From NCBI GenBank assembly GCA_963706955.1, contig CAVPOC010000008.1, forward strand, positions 640,001-704,000: a stretch of 64,000 nucleotides of DNA, read 5' to 3'. Both the position numbers and the translations under genes were made by a program. This document shows, in pieces, positions 968 to 6,576 of the stretch; within the stretch, counting starts at the first letter, position 1; every line of letters starts with the position of its first letter. The notes below the pieces were generated by a model. The model saw nothing but the letters and a program-made list of their open reading frames with translations. It was not told the DNA's origin and searched no databases. Origin of the DNA: an uncultured Verrucomicrobiae bacterium. GTDB taxonomy: Bacteria; Verrucomicrobiota; Verrucomicrobiia; Chthoniobacterales; Terrimicrobiaceae.

Positions 968-3900
968 CTATTGGACGTGGCTGTATTGGCCGGCCTCCAG
1001 ACGACGCCAGAAGTCACTGGTTGGCTGATCGAGAGGATCCTGCGGTGATCGCAAAATTTTGAGCGTGCGATGAAAGCGCAGCGCATTCAGCGAGCTTTTA
1101 TCGGTAATGAGCATCGGACTCAGGGTCAACGATTCTAGAGGGAGCTTGAGCAAGGTTCGGAGGTTGATCGGATTGAGGCCGGCGAGATCGAGATATTGCA
1201 GCCGACGGCAAGCTCCAAGCGGCGCAAGGTCGGTGACCTGAGTGAACGAGAGATCGAGCTTGTCCAGGAGCGGCATTCCCCAGGCAAAATCTGCGTTCGC
1301 CACTTCCGAGAATGCCAGCGTGAGAGAACGCACGCGGAGGAAGCCTCGCGGATTTTGAGGAAGACGTTCCATCGGAGATTTCGAGAAATCCAGAGAATCC
1401 AGAGGCAGTGAAAAGATCGTCTGCCAATCGATACTCCTCGCTCCGATGACGGCGAGTCCCGAGACATCGATGTTGCGCAACGGGCTCAAGTCGTTCACCT
1501 CTTCGGCGCCCCAGATCAGCACATCGATGCGACCAAGGCGGTCGGTATCAATAAAGACCTGCAGACCGGCTGCATTGCGGCGAATCAAGTCCAGCGCGAC
1601 TTCGTTAGCTGTGAATCTTTGCCGAATCGGACCCGGAGCCTTGTTGGATGCGTGGCGCACGCTCGGCTTGCGATTGAACAATTCAAGAATGCTTCCAGCG
1701 GTTAGATTTTGGGCGACAGAAGACGCCAGCAGAACTTCGGCCCCCCTCAGGTATTTCTCCGAGCCGGCGTTGGCCATGGCCGTCGCCAACTCAAGCGCTT
1801 CGACCGGGCCCTCGATTTCGCTGGGAGTTTGATCGAGATTGACGGCCTGCCGAAAGCTGTCGACCGCCCGCTCAAACTCCATCAGCGCCCAATGCAATCT
1901 CCCCTTCAACATCCAGGCGGCGGACAGGTCGGGCTGGACGACCAATGCACGAGAAACACTGTTTAGCGCATCGGTCAAGCGATCGACAATCCGATCCGGC
2001 GTTCTTTCGAGGTTCCGGAGTTCTTCGGGAGAGAGTTCGGCGTCATAAATCCGAAGGGCTTCACTCAGAGCGCGCTCCGCCTCGGGTGCGGGCTCGGGCG
2101 CTGATTCACTGGAAACGGGTGCGACTGGGAGAGTCGACGTGCTCTCCGCCATCTGGATGTCGGCGATCTGTTGCTCGAGCTCTTCCGCGCGTCGCGCGGC
2201 GGCGCGCTCGACATTTTCGCGCCGCTCCAGCTCGGCTTGCGTTTCCACTAGCGCTTTCTCGCTTTGCGCCTGCGCATCTCTGGCCGCGCTTTGCGCTCGC
2301 TGCATTTCAGCCAAAGCCTGCTCGGCACGCGTCTGCTGCGATCTTGCCTCATCGGCTGCGATCTTCGCTTCCTCTTCCTTTCGATTGGCCGATTCCACCC
2401 GTTGCTCGGCCAGAAGGTATTGATCGTGGGCAGCCTTGAGCCGCGCGTTAAGAAAGTAGATGGAGACCAAGGCGCCCGCGACAATCACGAAAACGGATGC
2501 GCCGATCACTCCGGAGACGAGCTTGTTTCGCACGACAAGCTTTTTCAGCAAATCCACTGGAGAAACCGGCTTGGCGCTGATGAGTTCGCCTCGCCGATAG
2601 TGATCGATGTCCGCGCGCAAAGCAGCGACGCTGCGATAGCGCTCGGCGGGATCATTCCGCAGCGCCATTAAGGTGATGATCTCGAGATCGGGGTGAATCT
2701 GCGGGTTGAAATTGCGAAGCCGCGCGGGTTCGTGCGTCTTCAAGGCTTGCCCGTCATTGACGATATTTCCAGTAGCCTCGAAATGACGGCGTCCCGAGAG
2801 CATCTGATAAAGGATGGTGCCGATGCTGTAGACGTCAGCTCGCTCATCGACATCCTTGCTCGATTCAGCCTGCTCCGGCGCCATGTTTTCGAGTGTGCCG
2901 ACAACATGGCCGGTTAGTGAGAGCGACCGAGAACCCTCACTGCTTTTTAGCTTGGCAAGACCAAAATCAGCCACGAGCGGTTCCCCATCTTCGCGGAGCA
3001 GAATATTCCCCGGCTTTAGATCCCTGTGAAGAACGCCGTGTTCATGAGCAAACTGGACGGCGTCGCACACCTTCAAGACTAGGCTGAGCGTTTGCTCAAT
3101 CGGCAGGATCCGCGTTTCTTTTGGCCGCGGAGGTGGATCCGCTCCGTCAGGATTTGGATCGGACGCTGATCGTGCCGAGCGCACTGATCGGATAAGCTCT
3201 CGCAGGTCGCTCTCTCCGTTAGTGCCACTTGAAGGTTCACCGGGAGTCTTCTCATAGAGCAGGTCAGAAAGCGGAACACCGTCGACGAATTCCATCGCGA
3301 TGTACTGAATGCCATCGAATTCATTCAGTTCGTAGACACGGCAGATGTTGCGATGCGGCAGCCGCGCCATGATCTCCGCCTCACGTCGAAAACGCCTCAG
3401 CTGCCCTTCGGTGACTGTTTGACTGGAGTTGAGGATCTTGATGGCCAGGATGTTCCCGAAGCGATCATTCCCACGCCAGACGGTTCCCATCCCTCCTGTG
3501 CCAATTACCTCGATAAGCTTGTATTTACCAAGCGCCTGAGTCGCTTGAGTAGTAACGACATTGTCTTCACTTAGTTCGAAGGAATCGCTCACCAAAGCCG
3601 GCCGAACCACCCGAAGAACGGGCGTCGGCTGATCCCTCCCCGGAACACGGAACGACCAGAGGTAATCAAAGTACAATTCGGTGCGATCGGGGTCCTCCTG
3701 AACACCACGGCCCACCAGGTAGACAACTTTCCGGAGGTGTTCAGGGACCGGACTGATCTCCGTTTCCGACCAGTCGATGTCACTGGAATCAGGCTCGTGC
3801 TCGCTTTCGGCACGGATGTGCTGCCATCCTTCCGGAAGAGTTCGGAGCATGTGCGTCAAGGTATGCTCGGGAAGGAGTGCTTCTCCCGGGCGCGCCAGAT

Positions 3901-4708
3901 CACACAAGCGGGCGGCGAGATCGAGCGGAGCCCCGATTGCGGTGTAACGCTGCCAGATGGAAGTGCCAAATACACCCACGAGCGCATCGCCCGTCCAAAT
4001 TCCGCAGGAACAAGGCGGCAATTCCTTGCCTTCGCGATACAGCCTCGCGTGAAGCTGAGAAGCTCTATGAATCTGCTCGCAAGCAGCCAAAACTGCCCGC
4101 AAGGGATGATCGGAGTAATAGCGCGGCGCTCCGCTGATTCCAAGAACGGTATCGCGCGCCGTTTCGCCGACGGTGCCGCCAGCGTTGCGCACGGATTCAG
4201 ATGCCTCCTCAACGAATGAATCAATGATCAGCTTCATCTCCATCGGATCGAGGCGGAGAGCGAGCTGCGGCAGTCCGCGAAGTCGCGTGTAGGTGATGCT
4301 AAGATATCTTCGCTCCGGATGGCGAACTGTTCGCAGTTCCTCCTCGCTGAGCAGTTCCAGCGGTGTTCCGCTCGATTCGCGCAATTCGCTCGTGGCGAGG
4401 CCGACGGTTCCAATCTCATCCAAAATGATGTCGAGCGTTCCGCCGCTGGCATATACCTGGGCTTCGAAGATTCTTCCGTCTGCATCCGTGACCAGACGGT
4501 TGCTGGTGCGACCGGATGGGGGACGTGCGAAGCACTCAGGAATCTCGCCACCGCAAAGCCGCGAAACCTCCTCTAGAGATGAGCCCATCAGGTTGCGTTT
4601 CGGCGTCCTCAGATAAGCCGCCAGAGCATCGTTCGCGTAGATGATGACGTCGTCGATCGAAACTCGTGCGATCATCGTGCGCAGCGGAGCGCTCTGAACG
4701 GCTGACAT
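968..4708 (-). CDS. Multidomain membrane Ser/Thr kinase: PAS-like, class III cyclase-like, Hanks kinase, TM helix, coiled coil, TPR-like, LRR
   Basis: Kinase motifs IGTGGMGTV, AIKIL, HRDLKPGN, DFG, APE, DVYSIG; cyclase-like GIWTGDALVG...RYTAIGAPLDLAARL; TM LVSGVIGASVFVIVAGALVSIYFL; LRR LDKLDLSFTQVTDLAPL. Confidence 0.88.
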   Translation of the reverse strand: MSAVQSAPLRTMIARVSIDDVIIYANDALAAYLRTPKRNLMGSSLEEVSRLCGGEIPECFARPPSGRTSNRLVTDADGRIFEAQVYASGGTLDIILDEIGTVGLATSELRESSGTPLELLSEEELRTVRHPERRYLSITYTRLRGLPQLALRLDPMEMKLIIDSFVEEASESVRNAGGTVGETARDTVLGISGAPRYYSDHPLRAVLAACEQIHRASQLHARLYREGKELPPCSCGIWTGDALVGVFGTSIWQRYTAIGAPLDLAARLCDLARPGEALLPEHTLTHMLRTLPEGWQHIRAESEHEPDSSDIDWSETEISPVPEHLRKVVYLVGRGVQEDPDRTELYFDYLWSFRVPGRDQPTPVLRVVRPALVSDSFELSEDNVVTTQATQALGKYKLIEVIGTGGMGTVWRGNDRFGNILAIKILNSSQTVTEGQLRRFRREAEIMARLPHRNICRVYELNEFDGIQYIAMEFVDGVPLSDLLYEKTPGEPSSGTNGESDLRELIRSVRSARSASDPNPDGADPPPRPKETRILPIEQTLSLVLKVCDAVQFAHEHGVLHRDLKPGNILLREDGEPLVADFGLAKLKSSEGSRSLSLTGHVVGTLENMAPEQAESSKDVDERADVYSIGTILYQMLSGRRHFEATGNIVNDGQALKTHEPARLRNFNPQIHPDLEIITLMALRNDPAERYRSVAALRADIDHYRRGELISAKPVSPVDLLKKLVVRNKLVSGVIGASVFVIVAGALVSIYFLNARLKAAHDQYLLAEQRVESANRKEEEAKIAADEARSQQTRAEQALAEMQRAQSAARDAQAQSEKALVETQAELERRENVERAAARRAEELEQQIADIQMAESTSTLPVAPVSSESAPEPAPEAERALSEALRIYDAELSPEELRNLERTPDRIVDRLTDALNSVSRALVVQPDLSAAWMLKGRLHWALMEFERAVDSFRQAVNLDQTPSEIEGPVEALELATAMANAGSEKYLRGAEVLLASSVAQNLTAGSILELFNRKPSVRHASNKAPGPIRQRFTANEVALDLIRRNAAGLQVFIDTDRLGRIDVLIWGAEEVNDLSPLRNIDVSGLAVIGARSIDWQTIFSLPLDSLDFSKSPMERLPQNPRGFLRVRSLTLAFSEVANADFAWGMPLLDKLDLSFTQVTDLAPLGACRRLQYLDLAGLNPINLRTLLKLPLESLTLSPMLITDKSSLNALRFHRTLKILRSPQDPLDQPTSDFWRRLEAGQYSHVQ

Positions 4709-4791
4709 GGGAAAATATCTTGTAACGGCTTTCCCTGGGCTCGCGCAATCCCGTTGAAAATCATACAGGCTTGGAGTAGCAACGAAAGCTC

Positions 4792-6576
4792 GTGTTCATC
4801 TACGCCCGAGCACTTCGTTATTTTCGCCCTTATCTTTGGCCGACGCTTGGAGGCGTGGTTCTCACTTTCGTAGCGATCATTGTCAATTCGCTCAAGCCGT
4901 GGCCCTTCAAGTATATCGTTGATGGAGTGTTGCCATCCGATGCCACGCACGGCACCGAAGAGGCGCGTGCATTCATCAGACATTGGTTCGGCTCTGCTCC
5001 GCTGGAACAGGTCGCCTTTTGGCTCTGCCTTATTCTCGTGATCGTGACCGTGCTCGGCGGCCTGATCACCCTCGTCAGCAATTATCTTTTCATCAGGGTG
5101 GGTCTAAACGCCTTGCTCCGCCTGCGAACGGATCTCTACGCGTGCCTGCAATCTCTACCTCTCAAGTACCACGACTCCCGCCGCAGCTCGGACTCCAGTT
5201 TTCGTGTGGCATACGATTCGCAGAGCATTCAAACGATCTACAATCGAGGTTTTGCCACCATCCTGAGCTCGTTCGTCATGTTAATCTGGACCTTTGCGAT
5301 CATGGTGTGGATGAACTGGCCGTTGGCCTTGACTTCGTTGGCGGTTCTTCCATTTGTGACCTTTGCGATCGGCTACTTTGCGGACCGGGTTCGTCGGCAG
5401 TCTACCACCATCCAGGAACGCGAAAGCGACCTGCTTGCGCTGACCCAGGAAGGCATCAGTCAGATTCGCATGGTGCATGCATTTGCCCGCGAATCCTTTG
5501 AGCTCCGGCAGTTTCGCAAGCGAGCCGCGCGAAGTCTGGAAGCTGGGCTGCGCTTTAATATCACCTCGATCGTGAGCTCGCTCGTGGTTGGCTCCCTGAT
5601 GGCAACGGGCACCGCTCTCATGTACTACGTGGGAGCACGTCAAGTCCTCGCCGGCGCTCTCACCCTTGGAGACTTGACCGTTTTTGCCGCTTACCTTCTC
5701 ATGCTCTATCAGCCGATGGAGCAACTCAGCTACACGGCGTGGGCAATGGAAGGTGCCGCTGCCGGTGCGGCGCGCTGCTTCGAGGTGCTCGACCGGGAGG
5801 ATGACGTTCCAGATGCTCCCCATGCCAAGCCGATTGAAAAGGTTCGTAGCGAGATTTCCTTCCGCGATGTGAGCTTTGGCTACTCGCACGATCGCCTCAT
5901 CTTAAGAGACATCAACTTATCGATCGCCGCCGGGGAAAGCGTTGCCTTCGTTGGCGGAACTGGCGCCGGGAAGAGCACGTTGCTGAGCCTGGTCCCGCGC
6001 TTTTATGACCCTACCTCCGGCGCGGTCCTCATCGATGGCCGCAACTTGCGTGACCTGACGAAAAAGTCGGTTCGCTTGCAGATTGGAATGGTCTTGCAGG
6101 ATACGATCCTCTTCTCAACGACCATCAAGGAAAACATAGCTTACGGCCGGCCCGGGGCGACCGACGAACAGATCATCGAGGCTGCCCAGCGAGCTCAAGC
6201 CTACGATTTTATCATGAACATGCCCCATGGGTTCGCCAGTGCGGTGGGCGAAAGAGGGGGCCATCTGAGCGTGGGTCAACGACAGCGCATCGGGATCGCC
6301 CGAGCTTTTCTCAAGAATGCCCCTATCCTTCTGCTGGATGAACCGACCAGTGCTCTCGATCCTAGTACCGAACACGCGATTATGGAGACCATTGGCGAGC
6401 TCATGCGAGGGCGCACGACTCTCATTATCACCCATCGCCTCGCCACGGTCCATTTACTCGGGCGGATCGTAGTCCTGGAAAATGGAACCGTTGCTGAACA
6501 GGGAACTGGTCCCGAACTCCTCCAAAGGGCAGGTCCCTATGCGCGCCTCTATCAAGCGGCGCAATATTCACGTTAA
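4792..6576 (+). CDS. ABC exporter, fused permease and ATP-binding domains (MsbA-like)
   Basis: N-terminal TM domain; Walker A GGTGAGKST, signature LSVGQRQR, Walker B LLLDE. Confidence 0.93.
   Translation: MFIYARALRYFRPYLWPTLGGVVLTFVAIIVNSLKPWPFKYIVDGVLPSDATHGTEEARAFIRHWFGSAPLEQVAFWLCLILVIVTVLGGLITLVSNYLFIRVGLNALLRLRTDLYACLQSLPLKYHDSRRSSDSSFRVAYDSQSIQTIYNRGFATILSSFVMLIWTFAIMVWMNWPLALTSLAVLPFVTFAIGYFADRVRRQSTTIQERESDLLALTQEGISQIRMVHAFARESFELRQFRKRAARSLEAGLRFNITSIVSSLVVGSLMATGTALMYYVGARQVLAGALTLGDLTVFAAYLLMLYQPMEQLSYTAWAMEGAAAGAARCFEVLDREDDVPDAPHAKPIEKVRSEISFRDVSFGYSHDRLILRDINLSIAAGESVAFVGGTGAGKSTLLSLVPRFYDPTSGAVLIDGRNLRDLTKKSVRLQIGMVLQDTILFSTTIKENIAYGRPGATDEQIIEAAQRAQAYDFIMNMPHGFASAVGERGGHLSVGQRQRIGIARAFLKNAPILLLDEPTSALDPSTEHAIMETIGELMRGRTTLIITHRLATVHLLGRIVVLENGTVAEQGTGPELLQRAGPYARLYQAAQYSR

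Follow-up and report, generated by a model that had tools for sequence, protein, structure and literature searches.

The window analyzed here is a stretch of 64,000 nucleotides from an uncultured Verrucomicrobiae bacterium of the family Terrimicrobiaceae (GenBank assembly GCA_963706955.1, contig CAVPOC010000008.1, positions 640,001 to 704,000), and our subject is a long gene of this soil bacterium, near the start of the window, that encodes a predicted receptor protein kinase. The open reading frame (ORF) lies at window positions 968..4708 on the minus strand, starts with ATG, and has 1246 codons (1246 amino acids, or aa, plus stop), with a GC content that is even along its length, at 0.55 to 0.60. 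Because full-length relatives of the 1246-aa protein share the same start methionine, we regard the gene model as sound. The initial annotation, made from the letters without database searches, had already recognized a single 1246-aa ORF at this position; we confirmed it and added its strand, which had not been given. From the N terminus the chain carries a PAS domain, a helical linker, a class III cyclase-homology domain (CHD), a Hanks-type kinase, one transmembrane (TM) helix, a heptad-periodic stalk, a helical-repeat domain, and a leucine-rich-repeat (LRR) solenoid (Table 1). Automatic annotation already recognizes this combination of domains. The protein is an uncharacterized, conserved member of a modular family of bacterial receptor Ser/Thr kinases, and its special feature is a retained pseudo-cyclase.

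The cyclase fold was found by both sequence and structure comparison. A phmmer search of the PDB matched aa 129 to 278 to CyaC (1wc1) at an E value of 9e-12. For structure comparison we used an AlphaFold2 model of aa 1 to 395, built from a 57-row alignment and having a mean predicted local distance difference test (pLDDT) score of 83.6, in which Foldseek recovered the same CyaC entry at an E value of 1.8e-15, and VIA aligned model residues 129 to 373 with both 3r5g and 1wc1 at a Z score of 20.8 and a root mean square deviation (rmsd) of 2.2 to 2.4 over 187 to 191 residues. About 50 CHD residues (roughly 303 to 327 plus neighboring loops, after residue 295) do not align to solved cyclases, and the last strands of the domain come after them. 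The initial annotation had placed a class III cyclase-like domain at aa 133 to 290; the fold assignment stands, and the extent needs revision, since the domain runs to about aa 373.

We mapped the catalytic positions through the phmmer alignment to CyaC and counted the residue states in 38 aligned orthologs. The two metal ions of a class III cyclase are coordinated by both of its metal Asp residues. The catalytic hexad, which is D, K, D, T, N, and R in CyaC, reads R142, E182, D186, T256, D263, and R267 in the window protein, so that three of the six residues are kept. No ortholog has the first metal Asp (0/38), the substrate Lys has mostly given way to acidic or amide residues, and the transition-state Asn is Asp or Glu in all 38. 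With the first metal Asp gone, and with other or varying residues where Lys, Asn, and Arg should stand, catalysis by two metals is not expected. We therefore predict that the CHD is catalytically dead throughout the ortholog group and that the window protein, judged by its sequence, is a homolog of the cyclase fold and not a competent cyclase.

Loss of catalysis in the CHD is nevertheless accompanied by strong conservation. Mean pairwise identity among the 38 orthologs is 70% for the PAS domain, 64% for the CHD, and 78 to 83% for the kinase lobes, compared to 27% for the stalk, 36% for the helical repeats, 46% for the LRR solenoid, and 16% for the Pro/Ser-rich linker, and dozens of PAS and CHD residues are invariant. 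The dead CHD thus appears to be under constraint, being far more conserved than the ectodomain.

The kinase domain begins about 22 residues after the end of the CHD and matches Pfam Pkinase (PF00069) in two stretches with an E value of 3.8e-40 and a score of 138.4 bits, against a cutoff of 31.7. Its motifs are GTGGMG at 403 to 408, AIK at 422 to 424, HRD at 561 to 563, DFG at 581 to 583, and APE at 610 to 612, and K424, E443, H561-R562-D563, N568, D581-F582-G583, and P611-E612 are the same in all 38 orthologs. The activation-loop residues S595, S597, and T605 are also conserved. The insert that separates the two Pfam stretches is poorly conserved (mean pairwise identity of 43%), with D501, L505, I506, R533, P536, and Q539 as the invariant residues within or near it. 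By motif content, then, the kinase is predicted to be active. The earlier description of an intact RD-type kinase is borne out by these data, and its pairing of an active kinase with a degenerate cyclase holds at the level of residues.

The N-terminal region, previously noted as PAS-like, proved to have the PAS order of secondary structure in the AlphaFold2 model: two strands, four helices, and three strands, with mean pLDDT values of 74 to 93 in blocks of 10 residues across aa 11 to 100. The best PAS match by VIA was the ThkA PAS domain (3a0v), with a Z score of 11.2 and an rmsd of 1.7 over 84 residues (model residues 9 to 98), and ten PAS-domain entries, including 3fc7 (Z of 11.1) and 5fq1 (Z of 10.9), were matched over model residues 8 to 102 with Z scores of 9.6 to 11.2. 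Pfam PAS_4 is weak in a scan of the whole protein (E of 0.26) and reaches 18.6 bits (E of 0.0022) with the isolated N terminus, under the gathering cutoff of 23.1, while 25 of 27 family N termini scanned singly match PAS_4 at an E value of ≤1 (best, 2.4e-6). In addition, a profile built from the family N termini matches the PAS sensor 3ewk in the PDB at an E value of 6e-4. Ten PAS residues (R15, N26, Y32, E55, D75, G78, E82, G90, L92, and D93) are invariant in the orthologs, and C59 is nearly so. The linker that follows occupies the position of the transducer helix in sensor-regulated cyclases: model residues 103 to 373 align by VIA to the linker and cyclase of the phytochrome-cyclase entry 6fht_B with a Z score of 20.7, and soluble guanylyl cyclase chains align over 340 to 470 columns among the Foldseek matches to this model.

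The segment L730 to L753 is the only one in the protein with 19-aa Kyte-Doolittle windows above 1.6. Positive charge is heavier on its N-terminal flank, which reads KKLVVRNK and fits an N-in orientation, so the predicted topology is N-in/C-out, with the PAS domain, CHD, and kinase inside and the TPR-like and LRR parts outside. In the stalk, the power at a period of 3.5 residues was 50.7, compared to a shuffle mean of 9.3, a value reached by 2 of 1,000 shuffles; the heptad register is continuous and fits a dimer. In a second AlphaFold2 model, covering aa 800 to 1246 with a mean pLDDT of 92.2, aa 801 to 855 form one long helix, and the C-terminal part shows a strand ladder. VIA aligned this part (model residues 236 to 435, aa 1035 to 1234) to the Roco LRR structure 5il7_B with a Z score of 17.1 and an rmsd of 2.9 over 184 aa, Foldseek matched internalin and Roco LRRs at E values of about 1e-5, and Pfam LRR_4 reached 24.9 bits, under its cutoff of 27. 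LRR entries filled the match lists of the fold searches with this model, which thus cover the LRR part. The single TM helix, long coiled coil, and C-terminal LRRs listed in the initial annotation are all recovered here, as is its placement of the TPR and LRR parts across the membrane from the kinase, which agrees with the hydropathy and flanking charges. Its TPR-like segment stands as helical hairpins in the model, but TPR matches in Pfam stay below threshold (TPR_CcmH_CycH, 28.5 bits against 42; TPR_16, 19.8 against 32.7).

Table 1. Features of the receptor kinase gene and the states of the six catalytic positions of its CHD
Feature	Residues	Window position	Strand	Basis, or states in 38 orthologs
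Whole gene (PAS-CHD-kinase-TM-stalk-helical repeats-LRR)		968..4708	minus	ORF; shared start Met
PAS domain	9-100	4409..4684	minus	AlphaFold2 topology, VIA, PAS_4 in family, PDB profile match
Helical linker, PAS to CHD	101-130 (helices 102-113, 122-129)	4319..4408	minus	AlphaFold2 model, VIA
Class III CHD, predicted catalytically degenerate	131-373	3590..4318	minus	phmmer, Foldseek, VIA
First metal Asp	R142			R20, Q12, K2, M2, H1, S1; Asp 0/38
Substrate Lys	E182			E21, Q13, D2, S2
Second metal Asp	D186			D19, E12, G4, N2, S1
Substrate Thr	T256			T23, S14, G1
Transition-state Asn	D263			D23, E15
Transition-state Arg	R267			K12, E12, R11, S2, Q1
Hanks-type RD Ser/Thr kinase	396-700	2609..3523	minus	Pfam, motifs
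Kinase insert, ~50 aa, between Pfam profile positions 94 and 95	486-535	3104..3253	minus	Split Pkinase match
Single TM helix	L730-L753	2450..2521	minus	Hydropathy
Heptad-periodic helix (coiled-coil stalk), Ala/Glu/Gln/Arg-rich	757-855	2144..2440	minus	Periodicity, AlphaFold2
Pro/Ser-rich flexible linker	856-874	2087..2143	minus	Low pLDDT at model residues 58-63
Helical-repeat (TPR-like) domain	875-1013	1670..2086	minus	AlphaFold2 helix hairpins, pLDDT >90
LRR solenoid, about 8-9 repeats	1035-1240	989..1606	minus	Foldseek, VIA, strand ladder

When two copies of aa 100 to 375 were modeled together as a homodimer, the ipSAE was 0.50 (0.53, 0.50, and 0.49 in individual runs), compared to 0.00 for the best of three controls. 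The runs shared at least 75% of their contacts, and the partner pLDDT was at least 81. In calibration, 20 of 30 proteins solved as pairs of one chain attained this ipSAE mark, compared to 1 of 23 solved as single chains. The predicted interface (residues 130 to 133, 146 to 170, 182 to 187, and 241 to 263) is the one classical for CHDs.

The gene is shared by close relatives of the host. A word-indexed search with aa 1 to 395 returned 214 proteins at an E value of ≤0.001; the best 120 of these 214 are nearly all 1220 to 1310 aa long, all have kinase matches in Pfam, and those with names belong to Terrimicrobiaceae or Verrucomicrobia. The automatic JGI name for these homologs is "serine/threonine protein kinase/class 3 adenylate cyclase." In the cultured relative Terrimicrobium sacchariphilum, the N-terminal 395 aa are matched at 57% identity. 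Among the best 80 loci in species-representative genomes, 76 match the N-terminal or CHD region, and the titles of these best loci name Terrimicrobium, Terrimicrobiaceae, Chthoniobacter, Chthoniobacterales, "Spartobacteria," or simply Verrucomicrobia, apart from one "Opitutaceae" entry and one "Bifidobacteriales" metagenome-assembled genome (MAG). Among the matches listed, the closest is from a Terrimicrobium sp. MAG, with 96% identity.

Sampling genomes evenly across Chthoniobacterales gave a match at an E value of ≤1e-25 in 29 of 201 genomes (including the unpublished genome G158). These comprise 17 of 22 genomes in the window's own family, Terrimicrobiaceae, plus the window genome itself, and 11 of 25 in five other families; ten families have none (0/153). 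An even sample of the phylum contained matches in 4 of 401 genomes, all in Chthoniobacterales, and the gene was found in none of the 391 sampled phylum genomes outside this order, with four candidates scored per genome. Most genomes with a match have one copy, in an open frame of about 1240 to 1350 aa, and two (G017 and G025) have two matches. The gene is thus a conserved, mostly single-copy ortholog of some Chthoniobacterales families and not a one-off fusion.

Several individual loci depart from this pattern. Some MAGs hold two diverged family members (loci L038/L059, L062/L065, and L040/L068), whose identities to the window protein are, in one example, 48% and 42%. At L060, L071, L074, and L075 the match covers only aa 9 to about 756 to 798, so that a different ectodomain sits on the same cytoplasmic chassis. 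L075 is the locus on the contig labeled "uncultured Bifidobacteriales," where aa 9 to 725 are matched at 36% identity; this contig is probably mis-binned, the other N-terminal matches being Verrucomicrobiota.

Beyond the orthologs, we found a larger family with the same layout. An exhaustive HMMER search with aa 1 to 395 against 1.84 billion cluster representatives gave 23,919 matches at an E value of ≤0.001, which are ordinary cyclases, and 112 at ≤1e-30. In a Pfam scan of 30 long representatives from the more distant part of the family, all 30 have a Pkinase match downstream of the matched region, which is split in two stretches in 25 of them, and 27 match the cyclase family PF00211. Their C termini carry LRRs (often with a C-type lectin domain), Sel1 repeats, WD40 propellers, FG-GAP repeats, or TPRs. 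Of the 110 listed representatives that reach 560 aa, 96 have the motif HRD[LIVM]KPxN, and these 96 kinase-bearing proteins include 88 with the PAS region and 84 with exactly one TM segment, at a median of 168 aa after the HRD motif. The exact DKDTNR hexad occurs in 47 of the 96, in which both enzymes thus appear to be functional, and the first Asp is absent from 35. Among the clusters looked up, an organism label was attached to 4 of the 20 canonical ones (Planctomycetota for three, a Spirochaetota MAG for the fourth) and to 1 of the 10 degenerate ones (Verrucomicrobiota). Four relatives with the canonical hexad (P0149, P0169, P0178, and P0222) have LRRs and a C-type lectin domain at the C-terminal end; diversity-generating retroelements commonly target C-type lectin folds.

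To place the window protein in this family, we used a tree of 80 rows spanning the PAS domain to the end of the kinase, limited to rows of at least 890 aa that have the strict HRD motif and residues in at least 70 of the 85 PAS columns. The window protein groups with degenerate rows only, in a 27-row set whose branch has a length of 0.43 and a Shimodaira-Hasegawa-like approximate likelihood ratio (SH-aLRT) support of 100. Outside this set are 53 rows, 45 of them canonical and 8 degenerate and scattered, and the label requires at least seven changes on the tree. By parsimony, and given that the canonical hexad is also that of generic cyclases, this distribution points to a single loss of catalysis where the window clade begins. 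The window gene belongs to the degenerate branch of a larger PAS-CHD-kinase-TM family with variable ectodomains. Of the roles that the initial annotation had described as inverted, the live kinase and dead cyclase both stand; because many relatives keep the canonical hexad, the arrangement is better read as the loss of one of two outputs.

The protein is probably a dimeric, single-pass N-in/C-out receptor Ser/Thr kinase in which the former cyclase now serves as a scaffold or regulator and the cyclase output has been lost. It would work as a dimer in which the dead CHD retains the head-to-tail interface, and the CHD pair and PAS domains on the inside, together with the coiled-coil stalk on the outside, would hold the two kinase domains side by side. 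Ligand at the periplasmic head, formed by the LRRs and helical repeats, would alter the arrangement of the stalk and TM helices and so reach the kinase, which would trans-autophosphorylate its activation loop (at S595, S597, and T605) and then phosphorylate cytoplasmic substrates. The PAS-CHD part would produce no cyclic AMP (cAMP); its role would instead be to scaffold the dimer and possibly to provide regulatory input from the cytoplasm. That one such protein combines an external ligand with a PAS or nucleotide input, as the initial annotation proposed, is an inference of the same kind. At about 15 nm by estimate, if fully helical, the 100-residue stalk may set the head deep in the periplasm. 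In evolutionary terms, such a protein would derive from a bifunctional cyclase-plus-kinase receptor whose cyclase output was lost.

Several points weigh against this interpretation. The kinase may be autoinhibited or noncanonical, the domain and its insert being known from sequence alone, and hydropathy and flanking charges are the whole basis of the topology. The dimer model may reflect likeness to, or recall of, solved structures and not binding, because many CHD dimers have already been solved; R142, at the position of the lost metal Asp, also lies outside the confident interface residues of that model. The tree is a "quick" one, calculated under LG+G4 with a midpoint root and with the trait columns kept, and reading "loss" and not "gain" of the hexad is a matter of parsimony against generic cyclases. 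No phosphatase, FHA, or cyclic nucleotide-binding gene is adjacent to the kinase gene, and its actual neighbors (an OsmC-like gene, a 60-aa ORF, a divergent ABC exporter, and G6PD/OpcA) look like plain synteny. Finally, the retention of D186, T256, and R267 in the window protein suggests that some nucleotide binding may remain.

This last point leads to a different role for the dead CHD, namely, that of an allosteric sensor of ATP, cAMP, or cyclic GMP that gates the adjacent kinase from the former active site. The proposal overlaps with that of a dimer scaffold, to which it adds a specific ligand, and a parallel exists in animal receptor guanylyl cyclases, where ATP bound by the pseudokinase gates the cyclase. 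Besides the three retained residues, it would account for the conservation of the CHD far above that of the ectodomain and fits the position of the former active-site segments (182 to 187 and 256 to 263) within the predicted interface. The Pseudomonas aeruginosa structure 6yii, a class III cyclase-like protein annotated as ATP binding, matches the model with a VIA Z score of 12.9, and the nine other CHD frames in the genome could supply a cyclic nucleotide. On the other hand, positions 186 and 267 vary among the orthologs, which argues against one shared nucleotide pocket, and we consider a sensor of this kind rather unlikely. A CHD that still works as a cyclase by some noncanonical chemistry, making the protein bifunctional like its canonical relatives, seems to us highly improbable: the intact fold (Z of 20.8), the second metal Asp, Thr, and Arg that remain in the window protein, and precomputed PF00211 matches in 24 of the 120 listed homologs favor it, but the state of the first metal Asp, Lys, and Asn positions across all 38 orthologs argues against it, and the window protein itself has no PF00211 match at an E value of ≤1.

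The dead CHD could also pair with a CHD protein elsewhere in the cell, as a noncatalytic partner or inhibitor, so that the receptor would control cAMP in trans. There are well-known cyclase heterodimers in which one site is degenerate, for example, mammalian C1/C2 and soluble guanylyl cyclase, and soluble guanylyl cyclase is among the fold matches to the N-terminal model; the nine CHD frames provide candidate partners. A heterodimeric site, however, needs both Asp residues from one partner and the Lys, Thr, Asn, and Arg from the other, and the window CHD completes neither half. With a homodimer model that passes by itself and no CHD gene adjacent to the kinase gene, we think such a role improbable. 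The remaining alternative is that the PAS-CHD part is an evolutionary remnant without a role and that the protein is simply a PknB-like receptor kinase. Catalysis has indeed been lost, and the kinase-TM-sensor layout is like that of ordinary bacterial receptor kinases, with PknB_PASTA_kin matched at 232.7 bits, below its cutoff of 450. Yet a remnant would hardly keep dozens of invariant residues and the PAS and CHD identities given above while the ectodomain diverged to 27 to 46%, nor would the PAS region be retained in 88 of the 96 kinase-bearing family representatives, and we give this alternative very little credence. The scaffold or regulator role within a dimeric receptor kinase is the one we prefer.

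Among known systems, the receptor kinases PknB and PknD are similar in having an N-in Hanks RD kinase with an activation loop, one TM helix, and a C-terminal extracytoplasmic repeat sensor. The best NCBIfam matches are to these proteins, PknB_PASTA_kin (NF033483) as above and PknD at 139.2 bits against 839, and cover the kinase part only. The window protein has no PASTA match in Pfam and lacks a PASTA or beta-propeller sensor; unlike PknB and PknD, it also has about 395 additional residues (the PAS domain and dead CHD) before the kinase and the insert of about 50 aa within it. Plant LRR receptor-like kinases, one of which is represented among the fold matches by the SOBIR1 ectodomain (6r1h), likewise join LRRs outside the cell through one TM helix to a Ser/Thr kinase in the cytoplasm and, as is proposed for the window protein, signal through dimerization. 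They are type I proteins with an N-terminal LRR after a signal peptide and no PAS-CHD, in contrast to the N-in protein with a C-terminal LRR described here, and the resemblance is convergent.

Animal receptor guanylyl cyclases such as GC-A/NPR1 consist of an ectodomain, a TM helix, a pseudokinase, a coiled coil, and an active cyclase. They are dimers, as the window protein probably is, and resemble it as single-pass receptors with a kinase fold and a class III cyclase fold in one chain, one of them dead, but here the kinase is the live partner and the cyclase the dead one, by the motifs described above, the orientation is N-in, and the cyclase precedes a membrane-adjacent kinase. The window protein is not a member of that family, and a common origin is not implied. 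The layout of PAS domain, helical linker, and CHD (aa 9 to 373) recalls soluble guanylyl cyclase and the PAS and phytochrome cyclases, from which the window protein differs in having no H-NOX or chromophore domain, in its predicted dead cyclase, and in its fusion to a kinase and membrane anchor. As for 6yii, a P. aeruginosa entry by its PDB title, the likeness extends to the CHD fold (180 residues aligned) and an annotation as a nucleotide-binding non-cyclase, at a sequence identity of 13% and with no kinase fusion.

Bacterial proteins that join a kinase to a cyclase in one chain have been noted before. In Arthrospira platensis, the NIES39_A07100 protein is described as containing a Ser/Thr kinase domain, GAF and PAS domains, and an adenylate cyclase domain and was called unique by its authors (PMC2853384). 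Like the window protein, it unites Hanks kinase, PAS, and class III cyclase domains in a single bacterial chain; it differs in that the kinase comes first and the cyclase last, in the additional GAF domain, and in a cyclase that is described as an adenylate cyclase and not as degenerate, and the passage that describes it mentions neither a membrane-spanning receptor layout nor an LRR (PMC2853384). The TOMM kinase/cyclase fusion (TIGR03903) is similarly a long bacterial protein with both enzymes, in the order kinase then cyclase. The window protein matches this model through its kinase only (aa 534 to 643, 85 bits against 705.75) and is not a member. A literature search, in which subscription journals were not covered, found no published description of a PAS-cyclase-kinase-TM receptor, in agreement with the initial annotation, to which the architecture was not known as a characterized system, and passages of the Galperin census do not mention one (PMC1183210).

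Bacterial receptor Ser/Thr kinases are poorly understood compared to two-component systems, and pseudoenzyme domains in bacterial signaling have rarely been examined. The family described here provides a natural experiment, in which one PAS-CHD-kinase-TM chassis has the canonical hexad in about half of the representative clusters and a dead but conserved CHD in one well-supported clade. That nature offers canonical and degenerate clades side by side with a shared chassis is, in our view, the most useful new point; a comparison of the two could show how cyclase and kinase communicate within one chain and what purpose a cyclase fold serves after catalysis is lost. In joining changing ectodomains to an unchanging cytoplasmic part, the family follows a logic like that of plant and animal receptor kinases, and the cultured T. 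sacchariphilum is a relative of the host. A bolder proposal, which we regard as doubtful, is that PAS-cyclase-kinase-TM-ectodomain proteins form an undescribed class of receptors with two outputs, cAMP and Ser/Thr phosphorylation, and that the cyclase half in Chthoniobacterales has become a nucleotide-sensing pseudoenzyme, through which ATP or a cyclic nucleotide from other cyclases of the cell would gate the kinase. If true, this class would have interchangeable sensors (LRR, C-type lectin, Sel1, WD40, and FG-GAP) and would be a functional mirror of the animal receptor guanylyl cyclases.

The host genome is 4.16 Mb long and 92.5% complete. It contains nine further frames with a class III cyclase domain (E values of 5e-12 to 9e-4 against the window CHD, on contigs C2, C3, C5, C8, and C13) and 19 Pkinase matches, some of which are pieces of one frame, including four other frames of 1200 to 1320 aa. 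In a search of this genome with the N-terminal module, the one full match was the gene itself and the other nine were the CHD-only frames, so there is no second copy of the module; nor was there a paralog that shares the ectodomain, the gene itself again being the sole match. We also note that the repertoire for cAMP and Ser/Thr signaling is rich for a genome of 4.2 Mb.

The neighborhood of the gene comprises, on its 3′ side and on the same minus strand, the 60-aa ORF (674-856) followed by the OsmC-like gene (208-624) and, on its 5′ side, an ABC exporter (4792-6576, plus strand; ABC_membrane and ABC_tran domains) followed by G6PD and OpcA. The exporter is transcribed divergently from the kinase gene, 83 bp (4709-4791) from its start. 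These neighbors recur in 19 to 30 of the best 80 loci, with the exporter in 26, OsmC in 24, and G6PD/OpcA in 19. In most of the 26 loci the exporter lies directly upstream of the kinase gene and divergent from it, including loci whose kinases are about 42% identical to that of the window (L060, L067, and L069); this placement may be synteny only.

The 60-aa ORF (MKDPYRKING...) is found in 30 related loci with 52 to 100% identity; in 28 of these 30, its place is downstream of the kinase gene, with both on the same strand. We considered it as a dedicated partner of the kinase and rejected this idea, as it also occurs in families without a kinase match: it was present in 168 of 201 sampled Chthoniobacterales genomes (a count that includes the unpublished genomes G158 and G173), among them every genome of three kinase-free families (f5, 8/8; f12, 22/22; f14, 21/21), so its position here is again one of synteny. 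The ORF has no Pfam match at an E value of ≤10. It thus represents a widespread small protein that is more conserved than its neighbors.

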